DNA from: an uncultured Verrucomicrobiota bacterium
Lineage (GTDB): Bacteria; Verrucomicrobiota; Kiritimatiellia; RFP12; UBA1067
Assembly (NCBI GenBank): GCA_946610035.1
Contig: CAMOCC010000001.1
Location: 35,948 to 99,947 of the forward strand
DNA length: 64,000 nucleotides
Reading direction: 5' to 3'
The translations under genes and the position numbers were made by a program. Positions 8,961-44,440 of this stretch are shown here, in pieces. Below the pieces are notes generated by a model that saw only the letters and a list, made by a program, of their open reading frames with translations, was not told the DNA's origin and did not search any database. Position 1 is the first letter of the stretch. Every line of letters starts with the position of its first letter.

Positions 8961-9118
8961 CCCCTTGCGCTTTCGCCGCATTTTTGATAAACTATGCGAC
9001 TGTCTTGTGAAGTCGGGGGCAAACCGGCTTCCCTGGCCGGGGCGGGCGCTCTGGTCTGTATCGCGGACAAAACCCCGGAAAAAGGGCACAAATCCGCAAG
9101 AAAAAGGAAAGTAAGAAG

Positions 9119-9976: not shown

Positions 9977-11887
9977 ATGGCATTCGGTTTTCTCAAGAAG
10001 ATCGTCTCCGCCCTCTCCGGCGGCAAGAAGCCGGAGAAGGGCGGGAAGTCCGACCGACAGGGCCAGGGCGGCGACGGCAAGGGCCGTCGCGGCAGGCGCG
10101 GCGGGAAGGACGGCGCGAAGCAGCAGGGCGGCCGCGGCGACAAGCAGCCGCAGGGCCGTCGCGGCGACAAGCAGCCGCAGGGCGATCAGAAGAAGTCGCG
10201 CGACGGGCAGCAGCCGCGCGGCGAGCGTCGTTCGGAGGGGCGCGGGCAGAAGGCGCGTCGCGACGACAGGCGCGGCGGCAGGGGCGATCGCGGCAGGCGC
10301 GGTCCGGCGCCGGTGAACACGGCGGCGGGCGAGATGCGCCCGGGCGGCGAGGTTTCGTCAGCCGAGCTTGAGGCCCGCAAGGCCGCCCACGCGGCCTGGG
10401 ACCCGGCGTCGTTCGTGGTCGAGCCCGCCGAGGGCAAGAAGCGCTTCCACGATTTCGACCTTCCCTCCGAGGTGATGCACGGCATAGCCGACCTCGGCTT
10501 CAAGTACTGCACCGAGATACAGGCTCTTTCGCTCGAGCAGGCGCTCGCCGGCAAGAACATCGCCGGCAAGGCCCAGACCGGCAGCGGCAAGACGGCCGCG
10601 TTCCTCGTGGCGATACTGACCCGCTACCTCAGGACGCCCGAGAGCCGCGCCAAGACGGGCGGCACTCCGCGTGCGCTCGTGATCGCGCCCACGCGCGAAC
10701 TCGTCATCCAGATTTGCAAGGACGCCGATGCGATCGGCAGGTACTGCGGACTTAGGTCCCTCGCAATCTACGGCGGGATGGACTACGACCGCCAGAAGCG
10801 CGAGGTATCCGACGCTCCCGTCGACCTTCTCGTCGCGACCCCCGGCCGACTCCTCGACTTCGTCAAGTCGCACGTGATCAACCTCTCGAGCGTCGACACG
10901 CTCGTCATCGACGAGGCGGACCGCATGCTCGACATGGGCTTCATCCCGGACGTCCGCCGCATAATGAGCTATCTGCCGCCGAAGAACAAGCGCGCGACGA
11001 TGCTCTACTCCGCGACGCTCAACGACACGGTGATGCGCCTTGCGATGAACTGGATGGAGGAGCCGTTCAAGGCCGAGGTCGCAAGCGAGACCAACGCGAC
11101 GGACACCGTCCGCCAGGTCGTGTACATCGTACGCTCCGACGACAAGTTCAAGGTCCTTTTCAACCACATCGCCCTCCACCCGGAGGCGCGCGCGATCGTC
11201 TTCTGCAACCGCAAGTCGACGACCGAGGACGTCTACGACTCGCTGCGCGTGCGCGGCGTGAACGTCGAGATGCTCTCGGGCGACGTCAACCAGAACAAGC
11301 GCCTCAAGGTGCTCGACGCGTTCAGGGACGGAGAGGTGAAGGTCGTGGTGGCGACTGACGTCGCAGGCCGCGGAATCGACATCAAGGGACTCGAGTACGT
11401 GATCAACTTCGACTTCCCCTACGAAGCCGAGGACTACGTGCACCGCATCGGCCGCACGGGCCGCGCGGGCTCGACCGGAATCGCGATCAGCTTCGCGGAC
11501 GAGGACGAGAGCTTCGCGATCCCCGAGATCGAGGAGTACATCAAGGAGCCCCTCAAGTGCACGATGATCCAGGACGACGACCCGCTCCTGAAGCCTCTTC
11601 CCGCCCGCGGTACGAGGCTCGGCGACGTCGACGCCTCGGCGAAGGCCGAAGTCGACGCGCGCGAGGCCGTCGGCGAGGAGGAGATTGCCGCCGCGGCGGC
11701 GCTCACAGGCGTCGCGAACGCGACGACGGCGAGCGGGGCCCCTGCGGTGCTGAAGGAGGACGCGCCCATGCGGACGCTCCCTAAGTTCGAGAACGCGCTG
11801 GAGCCGAAGGCCCCGCCGCCGGACGAATCGGACGTCTATTCCAAGCCGGTCGAGCAGAAAACGAAGCTCGAGGAGTGGAAAATGTGA
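9977..11887 (+). CDS. DEAD-box ATP-dependent RNA helicase with ~130-aa N-terminal Gly/Arg/Lys/Gln-rich low-complexity extension
   Basis: Motifs AQTGSGKT, PTRELV, DEAD (VIDEADRMLDMGF), SAT, HRIGRTGRAG. Confidence 0.85.
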   Translation: MAFGFLKKIVSALSGGKKPEKGGKSDRQGQGGDGKGRRGRRGGKDGAKQQGGRGDKQPQGRRGDKQPQGDQKKSRDGQQPRGERRSEGRGQKARRDDRRGGRGDRGRRGPAPVNTAAGEMRPGGEVSSAELEARKAAHAAWDPASFVVEPAEGKKRFHDFDLPSEVMHGIADLGFKYCTEIQALSLEQALAGKNIAGKAQTGSGKTAAFLVAILTRYLRTPESRAKTGGTPRALVIAPTRELVIQICKDADAIGRYCGLRSLAIYGGMDYDRQKREVSDAPVDLLVATPGRLLDFVKSHVINLSSVDTLVIDEADRMLDMGFIPDVRRIMSYLPPKNKRATMLYSATLNDTVMRLAMNWMEEPFKAEVASETNATDTVRQVVYIVRSDDKFKVLFNHIALHPEARAIVFCNRKSTTEDVYDSLRVRGVNVEMLSGDVNQNKRLKVLDAFRDGEVKVVVATDVAGRGIDIKGLEYVINFDFPYEAEDYVHRIGRTGRAGSTGIAISFADEDESFAIPEIEEYIKEPLKCTMIQDDDPLLKPLPARGTRLGDVDASAKAEVDAREAVGEEEIAAAAALTGVANATTASGAPAVLKEDAPMRTLPKFENALEPKAPPPDESDVYSKPVEQKTKLEEWKM

Positions 11888-11894
11888 AAATCAA

Positions 11895-11945
11895 TCGCAT
11901 TTGCCCCCTTGCCAAACGGGGGCAAAATGTGGTAAACTATCAATC
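11895..11945 (+). promoter_or_regulatory. rpsL promoter: -35 TTGCCA, 18-nt spacer, TGgTAAACT extended -10. A GC hairpin gcccccTTGCCAaacgggggc overlaps the -35.
   Basis: cccTTGCCAaacgggggcaaaatgTGgTAAACTat. About 30-nt leader with AAGGAAAAC SD before the ATG at 11975. Confidence 0.6.
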
Positions 11946-11974
11946 TTGTTTGGAAAAGTAAGGAAAACAACTAA

Positions 11975-12358
11975 ATGCCGACTATCAATCAGCTGATCCG
12001 CAAGGGCCGCTCGCCGCTTGCGAAGCATTCGAAATCGCCCGCGCTGAAGGCGTGCCCCCAGCGCCGCGGCGTCTGTCTCGTCGTCAAGACGATGACACCC
12101 AAGAAGCCTAACTCCGCGCTCCGCAAGGTCGCCCGTGTGCGCCTTACGTCCGGCTACGAAGTGACGGCCTACATCCCCGGCGAGGGACACAACCTCCAGG
12201 AGCACAGCGTCGTTCTCGTGCGCGGTGGCCGCGTGAAGGACCTTCCGGGCGTCCGCTACCACATCGTCCGCGGCAAGCTCGACTCGCTGGGCGTCGCCGG
12301 CCGCAACCGCAGCCGCTCGAAGTACGGCATGAAGCGCCAGAAGAAGGAGGCGAAGTAA
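11975..12358 (+). CDS. rpsL: 30S ribosomal protein S12
   Basis: [12 protein letters not shown]..., 127 aa. Confidence 0.9.
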
Positions 12359-12963: not shown

Positions 12964-14919
12964 ATGAAAATACTAGGTGAACAGATATTCGCTAAGGATG
13001 CCGAGGGCCGCCAGGTCAGCCGCATCGGAACGCTCTTCTTCAAGACCCCCGGCCTTGTGACGCGCCGGGGCATCCACGCCATGCAGCGCATGATGTGGAT
13101 CGACGACATCAACGCGGGCCGCGCGGCTGCGGGGCTTGCGCCGCTTACCGAGGCCGAGGAGGACGAGGAACTCGCGCAGTCCGTCGACCTCATCTTCACC
13201 GACGAGCACGTGCTCATCCGTCCCGATCCCGACCACATGGACCTCGCGATGAAGGCGGACGAGGTGCTGCAGACGCTCGTCTCCAAGAGGAAGATACGCT
13301 TCCTCAACACGCATGCGGCGAAGGTGCGCAACGCACTCAGGGCGCGCGGCGAGAACTGGCGAATGGCGCGCCAGCCGATTTCGCAGGATGACATGGTCCG
13401 CCTCATCGAGAGCTCCAAGGTCGCCATCAGCGGCGAGCCGATCTACTACTACAACTCCGCGACCGGCACGCGCTACGTGACGGTCGGCGGCTCCGAGGGC
13501 CTCGCCCACCTTCCGCCCGCGGCCTGCCGCGAGCAGCTGAAGGAGGCGCAGAAGATGCTTGTGCGGCGCAACAGGCTGGGGCACGTCGAACTGGACCTCT
13601 TCCCGACGACCACGCCAGTGGAGATCAAGCAGAAGTTCAAGTCCCTCGACGTGGATTCTCTTACCGACGAGCAGCTTTGCGAGACGGTCGAGCGCTTCGA
13701 CGCCGAGTGGCGCATGTCCATCCCGGCGGAGCTTCGCGAGGAGTCGGTGGACAACTTCGAGTGGCGCAACGCGATGTGCGCGACGATCACACAGGAGGCG
13801 AACGAGACGTCCGCCGACGAGCGCGAGCTCATCCAGGGCATAAGCCCCGAGTTCTACCGCCAGATCGAGTGGCTGCCAGGTCTCCGCATAACGGACGGGG
13901 AGATCATCTTCGACCCGCTGTGGGACGAGTACAACCGCACCCGCGACCCTGAGCTCGCCGAGATATGCGATCCGCGCGTAAGGAACATCCTCTTCAACTT
14001 CACGCGCCAGTTCGGCGAATTCGAGTACGTGAACGTCGGGCGCATCTCAAAGTCGCTCGCCCGCAGGCCCATCACCGGCTCCCGCCGGGGGAGCGTCTAC
14101 ATCCTCCAGTACAAGATCGCCGGCCAGCCGGAGTCGCGCGTCTCCATCCTGCGATTCCAGAAGTGGGGCGTGGCGGAGCACCTGGACGAGGGCAAGGACC
14201 TGCTCACCGCGATGTTCGAGGCGAACGACTACTCGGACTACATCATGGACAGGCGCATCATGTGCCGACAGCTGGGCATGAACCTCCCGCCCTATCTCGG
14301 CGCCGGGCAGTTCCCGGAGCAGTACAACGGGCAGAACCAGTACCGCGGCACGACGATCAGGACCACCTACTTCATCCGCGAGTACGTCCCCGGCACGGCG
14401 TCCGACAAGATTCCGCCCGCGCGCTTCCGCAACCCCGTCTTCGCGCTCAAGTTCGCAAGGCTCATGGGCGAGGCGGCCGCGCTGGACCTCGTCGTCGGCC
14501 GCCGCTCGTCGGAGACGAAGGAGAACCTCTTCGACAAGAACTACGAAGTCGTCCAGTTCGGCCCGGACGGCCTCCCCCGAGGCATAATGGTTTCCGACCA
14601 CGCCGGCAGCTTCGTGAACTACCTCCACACGTTCGAGGACGCCGTCGCGCCCTACGCGAACGTCGTCCGCCGCCGCTTCGGATTCGTGTCCGACCCCAAG
14701 GCTTTCGCCAACGCGTACGTATCCGCCTTCGAGGCGAAGCTGGAGGCCGTCCAGGAGTGCTACCGTGCGCGTCGCAGTTCGTTCGACGAGCTGCTGATGC
14801 ACCGGCCCTTCGACTCTGCAGGCTCCGTTGCCTACCGCTGGACGAAGACGCTCGAGCGGCTCGACGGATGCAATCCGAAGAACGTCGCCGCGAAGCTCAG
14901 GGAAGCGATAGAGGCCTGA
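12964..14919 (+). CDS. Hypothetical 651-aa cytoplasmic protein (no recognisable family). Own TGaTATAAT promoter lies 11 nt upstream.
   Basis: Long ORF with coding-like composition. The TATAAT island sits at 12947-12952. Confidence 0.5.
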   Translation: MKILGEQIFAKDAEGRQVSRIGTLFFKTPGLVTRRGIHAMQRMMWIDDINAGRAAAGLAPLTEAEEDEELAQSVDLIFTDEHVLIRPDPDHMDLAMKADEVLQTLVSKRKIRFLNTHAAKVRNALRARGENWRMARQPISQDDMVRLIESSKVAISGEPIYYYNSATGTRYVTVGGSEGLAHLPPAACREQLKEAQKMLVRRNRLGHVELDLFPTTTPVEIKQKFKSLDVDSLTDEQLCETVERFDAEWRMSIPAELREESVDNFEWRNAMCATITQEANETSADERELIQGISPEFYRQIEWLPGLRITDGEIIFDPLWDEYNRTRDPELAEICDPRVRNILFNFTRQFGEFEYVNVGRISKSLARRPITGSRRGSVYILQYKIAGQPESRVSILRFQKWGVAEHLDEGKDLLTAMFEANDYSDYIMDRRIMCRQLGMNLPPYLGAGQFPEQYNGQNQYRGTTIRTTYFIREYVPGTASDKIPPARFRNPVFALKFARLMGEAAALDLVVGRRSSETKENLFDKNYEVVQFGPDGLPRGIMVSDHAGSFVNYLHTFEDAVAPYANVVRRRFGFVSDPKAFANAYVSAFEAKLEAVQECYRARRSSFDELLMHRPFDSAGSVAYRWTKTLERLDGCNPKNVAAKLREAIEA

Positions 14920-17207: not shown

Positions 17208-17353
17208 CTCCTGAGTGGAACATGTTCCGGGTGACGGCAAGGGGTCTCTCGCCATCTGATAGTCGGGTCGTTGCGCAGGCGACGAGTTGCGGAATGGCAG
17301 TGTCCGTAAGATGATTTCCCGAAGGCGGCGTAAAAATGATATAATATCCTTCA

Positions 17354-18496
17354 ATGAAAATTCTACAGGTCCTACCGGCGCTTGAACAGGGGGGCGTCGA
17401 ACGCGGCACGATTGAAATAGCGACGGCGCTTGCCGCCGCCGGTGTGCCGTCCGCAGTCGCGAGCGCGGGCGGGCGGCTCGTAGGCGAGCTGGAGCGGCTC
17501 GGCATAGAGCACTTCACACTGCCTCTCGCCTCGAAGAATCCGTTCACAGTCCGTCGTAACGGCAAAGCCCTCGCGCGTATTGCGCAGGAGGGCGGCTTCA
17601 CCCTGATGCACGTGCGCTCGCGTGCGCCGGCGTGGAGCGTGAGGCGCGCGTCGAGGCTTTCGGGCGTCCCTTTCATGTCGACATGGCACGGACTCTACGG
17701 GACTGAGCCGAAGTTCCTCAAGATACCCTACAATCGGGTGATGCTGGACGGTTTGAAGACGATAGCCGTCTCCGACTGCGTGAGGAACCACATCTTGTCC
17801 GTATACGGCGCAGATCCCGCGAAGGTCGTGAGGATCCACCGCGGCGCCGACGTCGAGACGTTCCGCCCCGACGCCGTATCCGCCGAAGAGGCGGCGGCGT
17901 TCAAGGCCTCCCTTGGCTTCGACCCCGATACGCCTGTCGTCACGCTGCCCGGGCGCCTTACGTTCTGGAAGGGGCAGAAGGACCTCCTCGCGGCCGTCGG
18001 CATTATGCGCGAGCGCGCCGTCGGGGTCCTGTTCGTCGGCTCCGACCAAGGGCGGACGGAATACACGGCCGAGCTGAAGGCGCTTGCGGCGAAGCTGCCC
18101 GCCGCGAAGAAGGTCGTCTTCCTCGAGCATTCGAACGAGATGCCGAAGATATACGCCGTGAGCGACGTAGTGGTGAGCGCGTCGTCGTCCCAGCCGGAGG
18201 CGTTCGGCAGGATCATCCCCGAGGCGCAGGCCATGGGGCGCCTCGTCGTCGGTACTGCACACGGCGGCGCGTGCGAGACGATAGAGGACGGGAGGACCGG
18301 CTTCCTCGTCCCGCCCGCCGACCCGCCCGCGCTCGCGGCGGCGCTTGACAGGGCGCTCGACCTCCCGGCGGAGGAGAGGGCGAAGATGGCGGAGGCGTCC
18401 GTCAAGTCGGTGGGGGAGAACTTCTCCGTCGCCAAGATGTGCGCAAGGACTCTGGAGCTTTACAAGGAGATACACAATGGACTTCATCACAGGTAG
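17354..18496 (+). CDS. GT4-family glycosyltransferase (GT-B, retaining)
   Basis: C-terminal EAFGRIIPEAQAMGRLVVGTAHGGACETIEDGRTGFLV (E-x7-E motif). TGaTATAAT sits 9 nt upstream of the ATG. Confidence 0.75.
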   Translation: MKILQVLPALEQGGVERGTIEIATALAAAGVPSAVASAGGRLVGELERLGIEHFTLPLASKNPFTVRRNGKALARIAQEGGFTLMHVRSRAPAWSVRRASRLSGVPFMSTWHGLYGTEPKFLKIPYNRVMLDGLKTIAVSDCVRNHILSVYGADPAKVVRIHRGADVETFRPDAVSAEEAAAFKASLGFDPDTPVVTLPGRLTFWKGQKDLLAAVGIMRERAVGVLFVGSDQGRTEYTAELKALAAKLPAAKKVVFLEHSNEMPKIYAVSDVVVSASSSQPEAFGRIIPEAQAMGRLVVGTAHGGACETIEDGRTGFLVPPADPPALAAALDRALDLPAEERAKMAEASVKSVGENFSVAKMCARTLELYKEIHNGLHHR

Positions 18497-26790: not shown

Positions 26791-26824
26791 GGTCAAGCGC
26801 GAAAAGGCGATATTTGGTATAATA

Positions 26825-28225
26825 TTGTCCGTGGCTACCAATTTCAAGACAAGGCTTATACGGCTTGCGACGGCGCTCATCCCTGCAAAGGGGGTGAGGA
26901 AGCGCATTCGCAGGCGGCTTCTGGACCGCGAGCGCGACGAAAGGGTTGCGCTGACTCTGCCGGGGGTCCGTGCCCGCTACGCCGCGCACGAGGCCGCGTG
27001 CCGTGCGAAGCTTGCGCGCGGCGAGCGGCTGTCAGTCGCCTTCCTCGTCTGCGACGCGTCCATGTTCTCGGGCGAGCCCGTCTTCCTGAAGATGCGCGAC
27101 GACGCGCGCTTCAGGCCGTTCATCGCCGTCGCCCCGCGCGTGACGAGGGGAGACGAATTCCTGCGCGAAACGCTCGACAAGACCGCGGGTGCGCTGGAAG
27201 GGCGCTATCCGGGGGCGGTGGTGCGGCTCTACGACCCCGCCACCGGGCGGAGGGAGCGCCTTGATGCGGACGTCGTTTTCTCCACCGTGCTCTACGAGGA
27301 CCAGACGTATCCCGACTGGACGACTGAGAGGCTTTCGGAACGCTCGCTTGTCGCGATACTCTACTACGGCTACGGCGGACTCTTCTTCACGAACGAGAGG
27401 AAGACGCCGTTCCTCCCGAACATCGTCCTCTCCTGGCGCTATTTCGTGTCCAACGAGGCGACCAGGGCGATGAGCGCCGCAAAGAACCCGCTCCTCTCGC
27501 ACAACACGTTCGCCGTAGGCTACTGCAAGATGGACAGGCTAGAAGAATGTAAAATGGAAAATGGAAAATGTAAAATGGGAAGAGGCGAATGCAGTGTAGG
27601 ACTTGCACCGGGGCCTGCGAGGAAGAAGGTGATGATATGTCCGCACCACTCCATAGACAGGGAGGCGGACGGCCTCGCGCTTTCGACGTTCCTCGAGCAT
27701 GCGGACCTCTTCAGGCGCCTTCCCGCGATGTTTCCGGATGTCGATTTCGTGTTCAGACCGCATCCGCTCCTCTTTCCGAGGCTCGCGACGGCGAAGTGGT
27801 GGGGGCCCGAGAGGACGGCCCGCTACGCGGCGGAGATGGAGGCGCATCCGAACGTGGAGTTCCAGAGGGGCGGCGACTACTTCGCGACGTTCGCCGGGTC
27901 GGACGCGCTCATCCACGACTGCGGGTCGTTCCTGGCGGAGTATTTCTACACGGGGAAGCCGCAGTGCTACATGCTGGCGGACGACGCCACGGTGGAGCGG
28001 CAGTTTCTGCCGTTCGCGAGGCGGCTTCTCGACCACGTGGAGCGCGCGTACACAGACGACGACATCGTCGCCTTCGTGCGACGGGTGGTCCTGGCGGGCG
28101 ACGATCCGCGCAAGGCGGGGAGGGAGGACTTCGCGGCGCGCGAGGTGTGCGTGAACCATCCGCATGCGGCGGCGGGCGTCGTCGATGCGGTTGTGAAGGG
28201 AATCAAACAAGAGGAGGTCAAATAA
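26825..28225 (+). CDS. TagF/TagB-like CDP-glycerol glycerophosphotransferase family protein (start TTG 26825 or GTG 26831). Internal 7-nt repeat tract.
   Basis: C-terminal half carries KKVMICPHHSID...FRPHPLLFPR motifs reminiscent of the Glyphos_transf domain. Low certainty on family. Confidence 0.4.
   Translation: MSVATNFKTRLIRLATALIPAKGVRKRIRRRLLDRERDERVALTLPGVRARYAAHEAACRAKLARGERLSVAFLVCDASMFSGEPVFLKMRDDARFRPFIAVAPRVTRGDEFLRETLDKTAGALEGRYPGAVVRLYDPATGRRERLDADVVFSTVLYEDQTYPDWTTERLSERSLVAILYYGYGGLFFTNERKTPFLPNIVLSWRYFVSNEATRAMSAAKNPLLSHNTFAVGYCKMDRLEECKMENGKCKMGRGECSVGLAPGPARKKVMICPHHSIDREADGLALSTFLEHADLFRRLPAMFPDVDFVFRPHPLLFPRLATAKWWGPERTARYAAEMEAHPNVEFQRGGDYFATFAGSDALIHDCGSFLAEYFYTGKPQCYMLADDATVERQFLPFARRLLDHVERAYTDDDIVAFVRRVVLAGDDPRKAGREDFAAREVCVNHPHAAAGVVDAVVKGIKQEEVK
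27545..27593. repeat. Heptanucleotide tandem repeat (GAATGTA/AAATGGA) x5-7 inside the TagF-like CDS, between its N- and C-terminal domains
   Basis: gaatgta aaatgga aaatgga aaatgta aaatggg (aagaggc gaatgca). Same repeat family as 24513-24568. Confidence 0.85.
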
Positions 28226-30173: not shown

Positions 30174-30226
30174 ATGTCGTCGATCAAAAACCCGTAGCCG
30201 CCGGCGGAAAAGCCGGGGCCTGGCGC

Positions 30227-40712: not shown

Positions 40713-41720
40713 TTACGACGCGTCGCCGCAGCTGGTCAGGAACAGAAGAGCGTTGACAACGTCGTTGTCGCCCTCATACTCTTCAGGCTCCATGTCTGCG
40801 CCATCGACGGTCGCGGTTGTGTAGGCCGCAACTGCGACGTCAGCAGCATCGACATACTCGCCGAACTGCTCACCTTCCTCCTCGACGGGCCAGAGTTCGT
40901 CATCGTCGTCGGAGGAGAGAGCGCCAGCAGCTGCGGCAGCCTCGATGCGCGTGACGAGCGTCTCGGCATCAGCAGTCTTCTTCGAGAACTTGAAGGACTT
41001 GCTGAGACGACCAGTCTTGCGGAGCTTTTGGGACGCAGACTTGTTGTACTTGATCTTCCAGGATCCGTACGCGGCCGTCAGGTCGGTGTCGTAGTACGCC
41101 GCCGTGCAGGGGCAGACCTGCCACGCGGTGCAATCGCTCTCGCCGCAGAACTTGCAACCGCCAGCCTCGGAGCCCGCGAGCAGGAAGCCTGCGAAGTTGC
41201 CGGACATGCTCGACAGGATCGTACGGCAGGTCGTGCCGCTAACCTTGCCGAAGCCAGCGCCGAGAAGCGCGACGGTGTTGTCGGCGTCCCAGTTGCGGAG
41301 GAGCCACACGCCCTCGGCCTTGTCGCCGGTGTCGATGCGGTTGAACGCGGCCCAGCCGAAGGTCGTGGAGAAGATGTTGAACACATTGTCCGCCCCGACA
41401 TTCCAGAAGAGGTAGCCGCCGACGGTCGTGCCGTTGTTGTAGGTGCGCCATGCGGGATCGGCGATCGTTTCGCAATCGCATCCCCAGATCACACCGGCGA
41501 TCTTCGTGGTGCCCTGCTTGCGGACAGCAATCTTCTCACCCTTGACGTCAGAATAGTCTTCACCCTCAAGCGTGGCGATCGTCTTGGTGTACTTAATCTC
41601 CTTGCACGCGGTGGACTTGACCGTCAGCGAGACGTCGTAGACCTGCGCATCCAGGGAGGTGGCTGCAAAGGCACCCGCACCAATGGCAGCGGTCGCTGCA
41701 GCAATCATGAGTTTCTTCAT
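40713..41720 (-). CDS. Secreted Cys-rich 'IWGCDCE' family protein (paralog 2, left target of the switch)
   Basis: MKKLMIAAATAAIGAGAFA. AQVYDVSLTVKST, GVIWGCDCETIADP, SGNFAGF, CKFCGESDC, GSWKIKYNKSASQK. Acidic C-terminal tail. Confidence 0.65.
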   Translation of the reverse strand: MKKLMIAAATAAIGAGAFAATSLDAQVYDVSLTVKSTACKEIKYTKTIATLEGEDYSDVKGEKIAVRKQGTTKIAGVIWGCDCETIADPAWRTYNNGTTVGGYLFWNVGADNVFNIFSTTFGWAAFNRIDTGDKAEGVWLLRNWDADNTVALLGAGFGKVSGTTCRTILSSMSGNFAGFLLAGSEAGGCKFCGESDCTAWQVCPCTAAYYDTDLTAAYGSWKIKYNKSASQKLRKTGRLSKSFKFSKKTADAETLVTRIEAAAAAGALSSDDDDELWPVEEEGEQFGEYVDAADVAVAAYTTATVDGADMEPEEYEGDNDVVNALLFLTSCGDAS

Positions 41721-41988
41721 TGTTTCTTTTTCCTTTTGCTTATTCGTTCGGCTTGGCGGACTTCCGCGTTGCCTCCCCCGGAGCTACCCGGTCGATCCAT
41801 TTGTTCCGGCGGTATCTTGCCGACCCACTTTGTTGCACCCGCGTGAGCACGGTCGACACACATGTTATGCCATTCAGCAGATTCGGGACGGTTTGAGTTT
41901 CACACCCCTCTTCCACCGACTCCTGTAGAGCAATTTGCGGGTCAACTTTCATTGAGCCCGGTTTTTCCTAGGCCCGGACACAATGTCC
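41690..41988. repeat. Left arm of ~295-bp inverted repeat (IR-L). Includes the 5' leader and first ~10 codons of the left family gene.
   Basis: Its reverse complement matches 43384-43680 almost base-for-base (about 5 mismatches near the ATG). Inner end is the palindromic GGACACAATGTCC. Confidence 0.9.
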
Positions 41989-42106
41989 GTGCCGGAGGCG
42001 TGTTTGTTTGCACCAAAGGCAAGTTTTTCTAAAGCAACATCAAACTGAGAAACTAGTGTTGAGGCTGACGGCCCCGTCATAGGGTGACTTTTTGGGCTTT
42101 GCCCTT

Positions 42107-43216: not shown

Positions 43217-43312
43217 GATGTCGACATAGTATAAGTGCTTTATGTCTGATTGTCACGTGGAGCCGCGGAATTATGGCCATTATGAGCCGAAAGACACCCG
43301 AAAAAAAAATCA

Positions 43313-43358
43313 CGATACCCCCTTGCGCAACGGGGGTAAAATGTGGTACAATATTGTC
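43313..43358 (+). promoter_or_regulatory. Strong sigma70-type promoter inside the invertible segment: -35 TTGCGC, 18-nt spacer, TGgTACAAT. Near-duplicate of the rpsL promoter module at 11895-11945.
   Basis: cccTTGCGCaacgggggtaaaatgTGgTACAATat versus cccTTGCCAaacgggggcaaaatgTGgTAAACTat. Confidence 0.6.
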
Positions 43359-43383
43359 GCTTCCGTGGAACAGGGCGGGTTTC

Positions 43384-43680
43384 GGACATTGTGTCCGGGC
43401 CTAGGAAAAACCGGGCTCAATGAAAGTTGACCCGCAAATTGCTCTACAGGAGTCGGTGGAAGAGGGGTGTGAAACTCAAACCGTCCCGAATCTGCTGAAT
43501 GGCATAACATGTGTGTCGACCGTGCTCACGCGGGTGCAACAAAGTGGGTCGGCAAGATACCGCCGGAACAAATGGATCGACCGGGTAGCTCCGGGGGGAG
43601 GCGAAGCGGAAGTCCGCCAAGCTGAACGAAAAAGCAAAAGGAAACAAAGAAACAATGAAGAAGCTCATGATTGCTGCCGC
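43384..43680. repeat. Right arm of ~295-bp inverted repeat (IR-R). Includes the 5' leader and first ~10 codons of the right family gene.
   Basis: See IR-L. Inner end GGACATTGTGTCC. Confidence 0.9.
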
Positions 43681-44440
43681 TGTTGCGGCCATGACTGCTG
43701 GTGCCTTCGCTGATGCTTGCAGCGATCCCGAAGTGTCGAGCCAGTGCCGTGCCTGGGATGTCAAGATGTCCCTCAAGTCGCTCGGCCCCAAGAAGACCAC
43801 ATGCAAGATCTCGGCTGAGTCTCCTTGCGAAGACGACACCAAGGACACCGTCTACTACATGGACAACGTGACGCGTAAGGTGAAGGGCTACCTCTGGGTT
43901 TGCGACTACACCTGCGGCGCGGATGCCAACGTCGTTCTCTGGGATGAGAAGAACAAGGTCGCTCTTATTGCCTACGCTGAAGAGGCCGTCGCTATGGACA
44001 GTCTCTACGTCTATGGCAAGAAGGCCACGAAGGTTGGCGGAACGCTCGTGTTCGAGGGTGCTGACGCTCTTGGCGTCGACGGCATCGCGGTCACCGCTTC
44101 CGGCGTCACCGGCAAGATGGTCCGTGGCACGGCGGACGACGACTGCTACGTCAAGTCCCTCTCCGGCTACGCGGCTGGCGAGATCGCCTACATCAAGCCC
44201 GGCGCCAAGACGATCGTCAAGTCCGGCGGTCTCTGCGGCGAGCCTGAGGTCGAGGTTTGCGACGAGTACACGGCTAAGCTCCTCCCGTTCTGCGATGCTT
44301 GCTGCTTCGAGGGCTGGTGCGATGCCGAAGATGCTCCTGACATGGTCCCGGCGGCTGGTACCTGGTCCATGAAGTACAGCAAGAAGGTCTCGAAGGCCAA
44401 CAAGTCCATTGCGCAGCTCGTTCCTGCCTATGCCCTCTAA
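43655..44440 (+). CDS. Secreted Cys-rich 'IWGCDCE' family protein (paralog 3, right target of the switch; divergent member)
   Basis: MKKLMIAAAVAAMTAGAFA. AWDVKMSLKSL, KGYLWVCDYTCG, SLSGYAAG, CDACCFEGWC, AAGTWSMKYSKKVSK. Confidence 0.6.
   Translation: MKKLMIAAAVAAMTAGAFADACSDPEVSSQCRAWDVKMSLKSLGPKKTTCKISAESPCEDDTKDTVYYMDNVTRKVKGYLWVCDYTCGADANVVLWDEKNKVALIAYAEEAVAMDSLYVYGKKATKVGGTLVFEGADALGVDGIAVTASGVTGKMVRGTADDDCYVKSLSGYAAGEIAYIKPGAKTIVKSGGLCGEPEVEVCDEYTAKLLPFCDACCFEGWCDAEDAPDMVPAAGTWSMKYSKKVSKANKSIAQLVPAYAL

Follow-up and report, generated by a model that had tools for sequence, protein, structure and literature searches.

The stretch of Kiritimatiellia DNA analyzed here (64,000 nt, hereafter the window), assigned to this group by homologues listed under Kiritimatiellae or Kiritimatiellia at NCBI, carries two closely matching promoter modules, one in front of rpsL, the gene for ribosomal protein S12, and the other inside a cassette bounded by long inverted repeats, which appears able to serve either of two operons. 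How did the promoter of a putative phase-variation switch come to resemble that of a ribosomal protein operon, and does the resemblance reflect shared regulation or the history of the sequence? The first-pass annotation had leaned toward the former and interpreted a hairpin over the -35 as a possible common site of growth-rate or ppGpp/DksA-type control.

Both copies of the module exist, although the coordinate ranges originally assigned to them were mutually shifted by 4 nt. The rpsL site reads GCCCCC-TTGCCA-AACGGGGGCAAAATGTGG-TAAACT-AT (11903-11940) and the switch site ACCCCC-TTGCGC-AACGGGGGTAAAATGTGG-TACAAT-AT (43317-43354), which gives a correct offset of 31,414. In this register the two sites are indeed near-copies, but the identity of about 40 of 45 positions claimed at first proved too high: 33 of 40 positions agree between 11901-11940 and 43315-43354, and 33/46 over the range used earlier (11895-11940). 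The identity amounts to 32/38 over the core formed by the 6-nt flank, the -35, the spacer, the -10, and AT, and to 17/18 in the spacer alone (11915-11932 in rpsL and 43329-43346 in the switch). CCCTTGCNNAACGGGGGNAAAATGTGGTA and GGGGNAAAATGTGGTANANTAT each match exactly these two sites in the window, even with three mismatches, and found no site in shuffled sequences (n = 100). A profile search of the window returned E-values of ~1e-10 to 1e-11 for the rpsL and switch sites, which were themselves part of the profile, and the next match had an E-value of 0.01. The similarity of the two sites is far beyond chance. The coordinates of the features are collected in Table 1.

Table 1. Promoter elements, repeats, and genes at the two sites and in their surroundings, in positions of the window
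Feature	Position	Strand	Remark
Promoter-like site before rplM-rpsI, CCCCTTGCGC-17-TAAACT	8962..8997	+	~120 nt upstream
A/T-rich tract, UP-element-like, at rpsL	11880..11902	+	read from sequence; putative function; genome ~63% GC
Inverted repeat GCCCCC/GGGGGC around the rpsL -35 TTGCCA (11909-11914)	11903..11923	+	
rpsL promoter spacer, 18 nt, AACGGGGGCAAAATGTGG (G-run, A-tract, TGn)	11915..11932	+	
rpsL -10 TAAACT; extended -10 TGG at 11930-11932	11933..11938	+	promoter scan
rpsL (ribosomal protein S12, 127 aa)	11975..12358	+	PF00164, E = 2.5e-40
First cargo gene of the alternative (left) operon, 335 aa	40713..41720	-	26% identical to the 261-aa protein
Left inverted-repeat arm	41665..41989	.	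41775-41989 100% complementary to 43383-43597
Tyrosine recombinase, 369 aa, inside the segment	42107..43216	-	PF00589, E = 9.3e-16
A9 tract, UP-element-like, upstream of the switch -35	43301..43309	+	
Inverted repeat ACCCCC/GGGGGT around the switch -35 TTGCGC (43323-43328)	43317..43337	+	
Switch promoter spacer, 18 nt, AACGGGGGTAAAATGTGG, rpsL-type patch	43329..43346	+	
Switch -10 TACAAT; extended -10 TGG at 43344-43346	43347..43352	+	
Leader, ~296 nt, predicted start to first cargo gene, mostly within the inverted repeat	43359..43654	+	
Right inverted-repeat arm	43383..43710	.	repeats ~325 bp
First cargo gene now faced by the promoter, 261 aa, Cys-rich, signal-peptide-like N terminus	43655..44440	+	

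At rpsL, the promoter scan detected TTGCCA-18-TAAACT with a TG, ~37 nt 5' of the ATG (shuffle expectation, 0.0). This promoter agrees with the sigma-70 consensus TTGACA/TATAAT at 9/12 positions (5/6 in the -35 and 4/6 in the -10), and its start is predicted near 11942-11946. The comparison with relatives covered seven promoter types with four different upstream genes. Relatives with identical or 94 to 97% identical S12 have four different genes upstream of rpsL, which across the species encode a DEAD-box helicase, an AP endonuclease, a divergently oriented aldolase, and an MFS transporter, and the sequence 5' of the promoter is unrelated among them. The -35, the 18-nt spacing, the A-tract with TGn, the -10 (TATAAT or TATACT in the relatives), and the ribosome-binding region are all kept. 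Because the promoter elements are retained while their flanks differ, we read the site as the rpsL promoter, and its conservation is a phylogenetic footprint of this predicted promoter. A spacer with a G-run and an A-tract is also present at rpsL of the sister species L013/L018/L030, and the rpsL spacer of the window agrees with those of the relatives L013/L018 and L022 at 14 to 15 of 18 positions. Downstream of rpsL-rpsG, the window encodes a 651-aa protein without a Pfam match followed by an ABC permease (12964-14919) and no fusA, while EF-G occupies the position after rpsL-rpsG in the more distant relative L044.

The switch site, TTGCGC-18-TACAAT with TGG, lies under the threshold of the scan (4/6 per hexamer), and its promoter was read directly from the sequence. 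It agrees with the sigma-70 consensus at 8/12 positions (3/6 in the -35 and 5/6 in the -10); thus, relative to the consensus, the -35 of the switch is weaker and its -10 stronger than those of rpsL. From the usual spacing, transcription is predicted to start near 43359-43361. Between 41500 and 43900, the promoter scan found no other sigma-70-like site facing either operon. We fetched homologous switches through homologues of the recombinase, which are 48% (L036/L037) and 51% (L025) identical to that of the window; in L036/L037, the flanking gene order is also the same. These switches carry ccccTTGCAT-17-TACAATATTCGCGCTTTCGAGG at an equal distance from the conserved repeat start CGGACATTGTGTCCGGGCC, and TACAATATT together with the start region that follows it is kept in L025, L036, and L037. 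Where the window has its A9 tract, the sister switches have a T9 tract. The earlier reading of both sites as promoters is borne out by their sigma-70 anatomy and position; both look like sigma-70-type promoters with an extended -10, whose activity and strength we infer. The ribosomal-protein strength and all-or-none expression put forward in the first-pass annotation are likewise predictions.

The switch copy lies within the invertible segment, as the first-pass annotation had stated: its -10 ends 30 nt short of the inner edge of the right repeat, and the promoter (43323-43352) points outward between arms that are perfectly complementary over 215 nt. The tyrosine recombinase gene has its own promoter-like site, GTGACA-17-TATACT, at 43256-43228. 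The locus has the two hallmarks of an inverton, namely a promoter between inverted repeats and a site-specific recombinase close by, and we infer that the segment inverts. The cassette would belong to a Kiritimatiellia switch family in which a tyrosine recombinase and one outward promoter lie between long inverted repeats, and the repeats double as leaders common to both of two diverged surface-protein operons. In either orientation, the presumably strong promoter would be directed toward one operon and the recombinase gene toward the other. RNA polymerase carrying the housekeeping sigma factor would bind the A-rich tract, the modest -35, and the good extended -10, start near 43359, and transcribe a leader of ~296 nt, identical for both operons, followed by whichever operon the cassette faces. 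At present, it would read rightward into the genes for the 261-aa protein, a PPIase, a thioredoxin-like protein, and a Wzy_C membrane protein, and after inversion into the left paralogous operon. The left operon is paralogous to the right one, with its own Cys-rich, PPIase, thioredoxin-like, and Wzy_C genes (paralogues 26 to 30% identical), and contains further genes. An AlphaFold2 model of the 261-aa protein is all-beta with long hairpins (pLDDT 85.8); it gave no convincing fold match in the PDB, and the protein belongs to no Pfam or NCBIfam family. Its homologues (P0242-P0342) comprise at least 102 Cys-rich proteins of ~260 aa with a signal-peptide-like N terminus, all unnamed or hypothetical, and Kiritimatiellae is the only organism named for the family.

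Every contig long enough to show the orientation of the switch has the same one, and short contigs break inside the repeat. When the recombinase and cargo proteins were used to look for the opposite orientation, the contigs recovered either had the same orientation or were broken at the repeat. L036 and L037, which encode the same recombinase protein and have the promoter in equal orientation, carry a cluster of inner-arm variants in different arms (L036 2480-2783 and 4192-4494). This arm mosaic suggests that the arms have exchanged sequence, through a double inversion or gene conversion, but it may also be an assembly artefact, as L037 has an N run in the other arm. The related recombinases number at least 206, and many of them are found on contigs of 1.3 to 1.6 kb, a length equal to that of the repeat-flanked segment; assembly thus seems to stop frequently at switches of this kind. 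Some recombinase homologues (the L027, L028, and L038 loci) lie between two convergent giant surface-protein genes without a long inverted repeat. The contig L032 (JGI Ga0310694_10015751) joins position 30188 of the window to 43162; it is without the whole left operon and retains only two small fragments of the recombinase gene, together with the promoter before the right operon, where the aligned module shows no differences. L032 looks like a natural locked-ON deletion variant, with an assembly chimera as the alternative.

The leader is mirrored at 42013-41721 on the minus strand. It is 85 to 100% conserved among switches (L036, L037, L025, and L026) whose recombinases are only ~50% identical, and RNAalifold predicted 63 pairs in it, seven of them with compensatory changes. 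No Rfam family matched the window at the gathering threshold, and a search with the leader was empty even at E <= 1. The leader may be a new structured leader RNA, a recombination site, or both. Two small ORFs within it (97 and 70 aa) were set aside, as neither is preceded by a ribosome-binding site and their reading frames diverge past the repeat.

When the switch promoter of the window was compared with its homologues on the one hand and with rpsL promoters on the other, its parts fell into two groups. It shares the -35 flank, the C-run with TTGC, the -10, the start region, and the leader with the homologous switches. Its spacer agrees with the 17-nt spacers of the L036 and L025 switches at only 8/18 and 7/18 positions, respectively, as opposed to 17/18 for rpsL of its own genome and 14/18 for rpsL of L013/L018 and L022, and a spacer with a G-run and an A-tract is absent from the other switches examined. 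Since everything from the -10 through the leader follows the switch type while the spacer groups with rpsL, the predicted switch promoter is a mosaic. The promoter-like site before rplM-rpsI combines the same elements differently, with a -35 block as in the switch, a -10 as in rpsL, and an unrelated spacer (6 to 7 of 18). CCCCTTGC is also found at rplM and in the other switches examined. As judged from these sites, a C-run before the -35 and an A-tract followed by TGn, TAnAAT, and AT are the lineage consensus. The block AACGGGGG, identical in the rpsL and switch copies, is not part of it; this block and the precise spacer sequence set rpsL and this one switch apart.

Other sites in the window and beyond display parts of the same layout. 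Promoter-like sites with an extended -10 (A-tract, TGn, TATAAT, AT) are present at 17320-17348 and 26799-26825, and the same succession precedes the recombinase gene in L027. Only 8 nt separate the end of the first of these from the ATG at 17354, so that its mRNA may be leaderless, and the second has the start region ATTGTC..CGTGG in common with the switch promoter. In L006 (Oscillospiraceae MAG SVSM01000010.1, 4480-4531, minus strand), a promoter reading CCCCCTTGCCAAACGGGGCAAAATGTGCTATCAT includes a C-run/G-run dyad and precedes a gene whose product we take to be NUDIX-like. The likeness of this promoter to the module is probably due to convergence on the promoter consensus.

We consider a short transfer of sequence from the rpsL promoter into the switch promoter of the same genome to be the best explanation of the shared spacer, and a moderately probable one. 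Both sites would be housekeeping promoters built on one plan, with an A/T-rich tract, a C-run, TTGCnn, an 18-nt spacer ending in an A-tract and TGn, TAnnnT, and AT. Possible routes are gene conversion and template switching, which the blocks common to both promoters, CCCCTTGC and TGnTA, could have seeded; the direction from rpsL to the switch is the most likely one. The exchange would have taken place after the species split, because rpsL of the sister species has the spacer as well and the switch copy is closest to rpsL of its own genome. The transferred patch of ~20 to 38 nt is shorter than typical conversion tracts, which counts against a transfer. The comparison of switches covers two lineages only (the window and the L025/L036 group), so that by parsimony alone either spacer may be the ancestral one, and the reverse polarity within the switch family may apply. 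A CATTTnCCCC-TTGC sequence, which runs into the -35 from upstream and is common to the L036 switch and rpsL of the window, is a hint that the two promoter classes exchanged sequence earlier or more than once.

The same sequence would also fit an ancient common origin, in which an rpsL-type promoter gave rise to the switch family, whose ancestral spacer persists in the window while the L025/L036 switches diverged. The C-run with TTGC and TGnTAnAATAT shared by all these promoters are in line with this scenario, as are the CATTTnCCCC-TTGC of the L036 switch and the ambiguity of the ancestral state with two switch lineages. An old duplicate, however, would be expected to be about equidistant from all rpsL copies, whereas the switch copy matches its own rpsL at 17/18 positions and that of species with identical S12 at 14/18; therefore, the exchange would postdate the species split, and we regard an ancient origin as unlikely. 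Convergence on the strong-promoter consensus of the lineage, or chance, could account for the generic parts of the module, such as CCCCTTGC and the A-tract/TGn/TATAAT/AT succession seen at other sites, and the unrelated promoter of L006 reaches ~31/38 to the rpsL module by hand count. It is nevertheless very unlikely, given that AACGGGGG is identical in both copies yet outside the consensus, that no shuffle reproduced the match, and that the spacer of the rplM promoter, in the same window, agrees at so few positions. That the module might be a dispersed repeat, the end of a mobile element, or a terminator hairpin merely resembling a promoter deserves mention, since at rpsL only 16 nt separate the GC-rich stem from the stop codon of the preceding DEAD-box helicase gene. 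Yet no T-run follows the stem on either strand (on the plus strand it is followed by AAAATG), the terminator scans flagged neither site, and the gene upstream of rpsL in L022 points away, being encoded on the other strand, so that nothing reads into the site. Nor did the module behave as a common dispersed repeat: it occurs twice in the 64-kb window and in only the same two contexts in the metagenome collection. There, a search for further copies with a pattern that matches both sites of the window recovered rpsL (L030 and L034) and the switch (L032), whereas three additional matches lay in unrelated contexts and were read as chance. L032 and L034 come from one sample series (contig names beginning with Ga0310694). 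The viral collection gave no match to this pattern or to the conserved repeat start. The pattern CCTTGCNNAACGGGGNAAAATG was discarded, as it is one G short and misses the window's own copies; its 12 matches, in unrelated taxa, were uninformative. Altogether, we hold a repeat or terminator to be exceedingly improbable.

A further reading is that the spacer and the dyad form a functional cis-element under selection in both promoters, acting either as the operator of a dimeric regulator or through a structure that modulates RNA polymerase, and that the ON output of the switch is coupled to ribosomal protein synthesis, which was the idea of the first-pass annotation. The inverted repeat over the -35 is indeed present in both copies. 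The near-identity of the spacers, which normally drift, speaks for such an element, as does the G-run/A-tract succession, which four of the seven rpsL promoter types (those of the window, L013, L018, and L022) have in their spacers. The outermost pair of the stem differs compensatorily between the copies (G-C in rpsL and A-T in the switch), one small hint of selection on pairing. Folded as single-stranded DNA, the rpsL hairpin of the window is unusually stable (-10.9 kcal/mol, z = -3.3), because CATTTG/CAAAATG lengthens its stem; the switch hairpin is unremarkable (-6.4 kcal/mol, z = -0.76), and the rpsL fold of the sister species L013 is weak (z = 0.13). Across nine promoters, however, pairing was no better than in shuffles (57.4% of cells versus 56.0%), the covariation score of 0.106 (0.100 in shuffles) was reached by 192 of 500 shuffles, and sliding the 3' partner by -1 column left 59.3% paired. 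The stems of L022 and L053 lie in different registers, L020 and L054 are without a stem, the homologous switch promoters have no G-run at all and the rplM promoter lacks it too, and the strain variant L024 has a substitution in the patch (AAC to ATC). We also rejected a compensatory series of CCCC/GGGG, CCAC/GTGG, and TCAC/GTGA stems, as these occupy different registers in the ungapped alignment and the count was unsupportive. In these comparisons, the hairpin shows no sign of a conserved regulatory element, and the earlier proposal of a shared regulatory site was not supported. Promoters of Escherichia coli that are sensitive to ppGpp/DksA have a GC-rich discriminator and a short spacer of 16 nt. 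The discriminators found here (ATCAATC in rpsL and ATTGTCG in the switch) are AT-rich and both spacers measure 18 nt, which argues against the suggested ppGpp/DksA-type control in the form known from E. coli. A selected cis-element thus retains some plausibility but is on balance unlikely. That the rpsL-type spacer is a genuine control element of ribosomal protein promoters transplanted into a phase-variation switch strikes us as quite doubtful; if true, the choice of the operon would stay with the recombinase, while the expression level would follow ribosome synthesis and growth rate. Under the transfer from rpsL that we prefer, the hairpin would be a by-product, formed because the C-run that usually precedes the -35 in this lineage now stands opposite the G-run brought in with the rpsL spacer, and would be a passenger and not a regulatory element.

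The arrangement of the cassette combines features of several known switches. In Campylobacter fetus, one invertible sap promoter serves either of two oppositely oriented paralogous surface-protein genes, and the genes' conserved 5' ends form the inverted repeats, which are used by homologous recombination. The present cassette resembles sap in that a single promoter would be toggled between two paralogues with gene 5' ends as repeats; unlike sap, it carries a tyrosine recombinase inside the segment and ~290-nt, mostly noncoding leader repeats, and whole operons would be swapped. Hin is a serine invertase that acts on 26-bp hix sites and turns one operon on or off. As in Hin/hix of Salmonella, the recombinase gene and an outward promoter lie together in the invertible segment, but here two paralogous operons would be toggled. 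The fimS element of E. coli, 314 bp long, is bounded by 9-bp repeats and flipped by recombinases whose genes lie outside it. The cassette differs from fimS by its ~325-bp repeats, the recombinase inside, and two orientations that would both be productive. Invertible promoters of gut bacteria have been surveyed with PhaseFinder and DeepInverton (PMC11602134, PMC11892184). With fimS and with these gut invertons, the cassette shares a sigma-70-type promoter between repeats, a tyrosine recombinase, and cell-surface genes. Like the rRNA and ribosomal protein promoters of E. coli, the promoter that would have served as the model drives a ribosomal protein operon and has an A/T-rich upstream tract; unlike the ppGpp/DksA-sensitive ones, neither promoter shows a GC-rich discriminator or a 16-nt spacer.

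In the library searched, we found no paper linking Kiritimatiellia with invertible promoters or phase variation. Within this scope, the predicted two-way promoter switch with the recombinase inside is unreported in this barely studied rumen lineage, and the sites described here document its promoter layout, with a C-run before the -35 and an A-tract and TGn before the -10. The case rests on one genome and concerns modular promoter evolution; it is of modest surprise and does not overturn current understanding. The switch promoter would be a clean natural case of piecewise promoter rebuilding, in which its own -10, start, and leader are combined with the spacer of a ribosomal protein promoter. 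If the patch alters the strength or the regulation of the promoter, a transfer of ~20 nt would re-tune a phase-variable surface system while leaving its machinery untouched.
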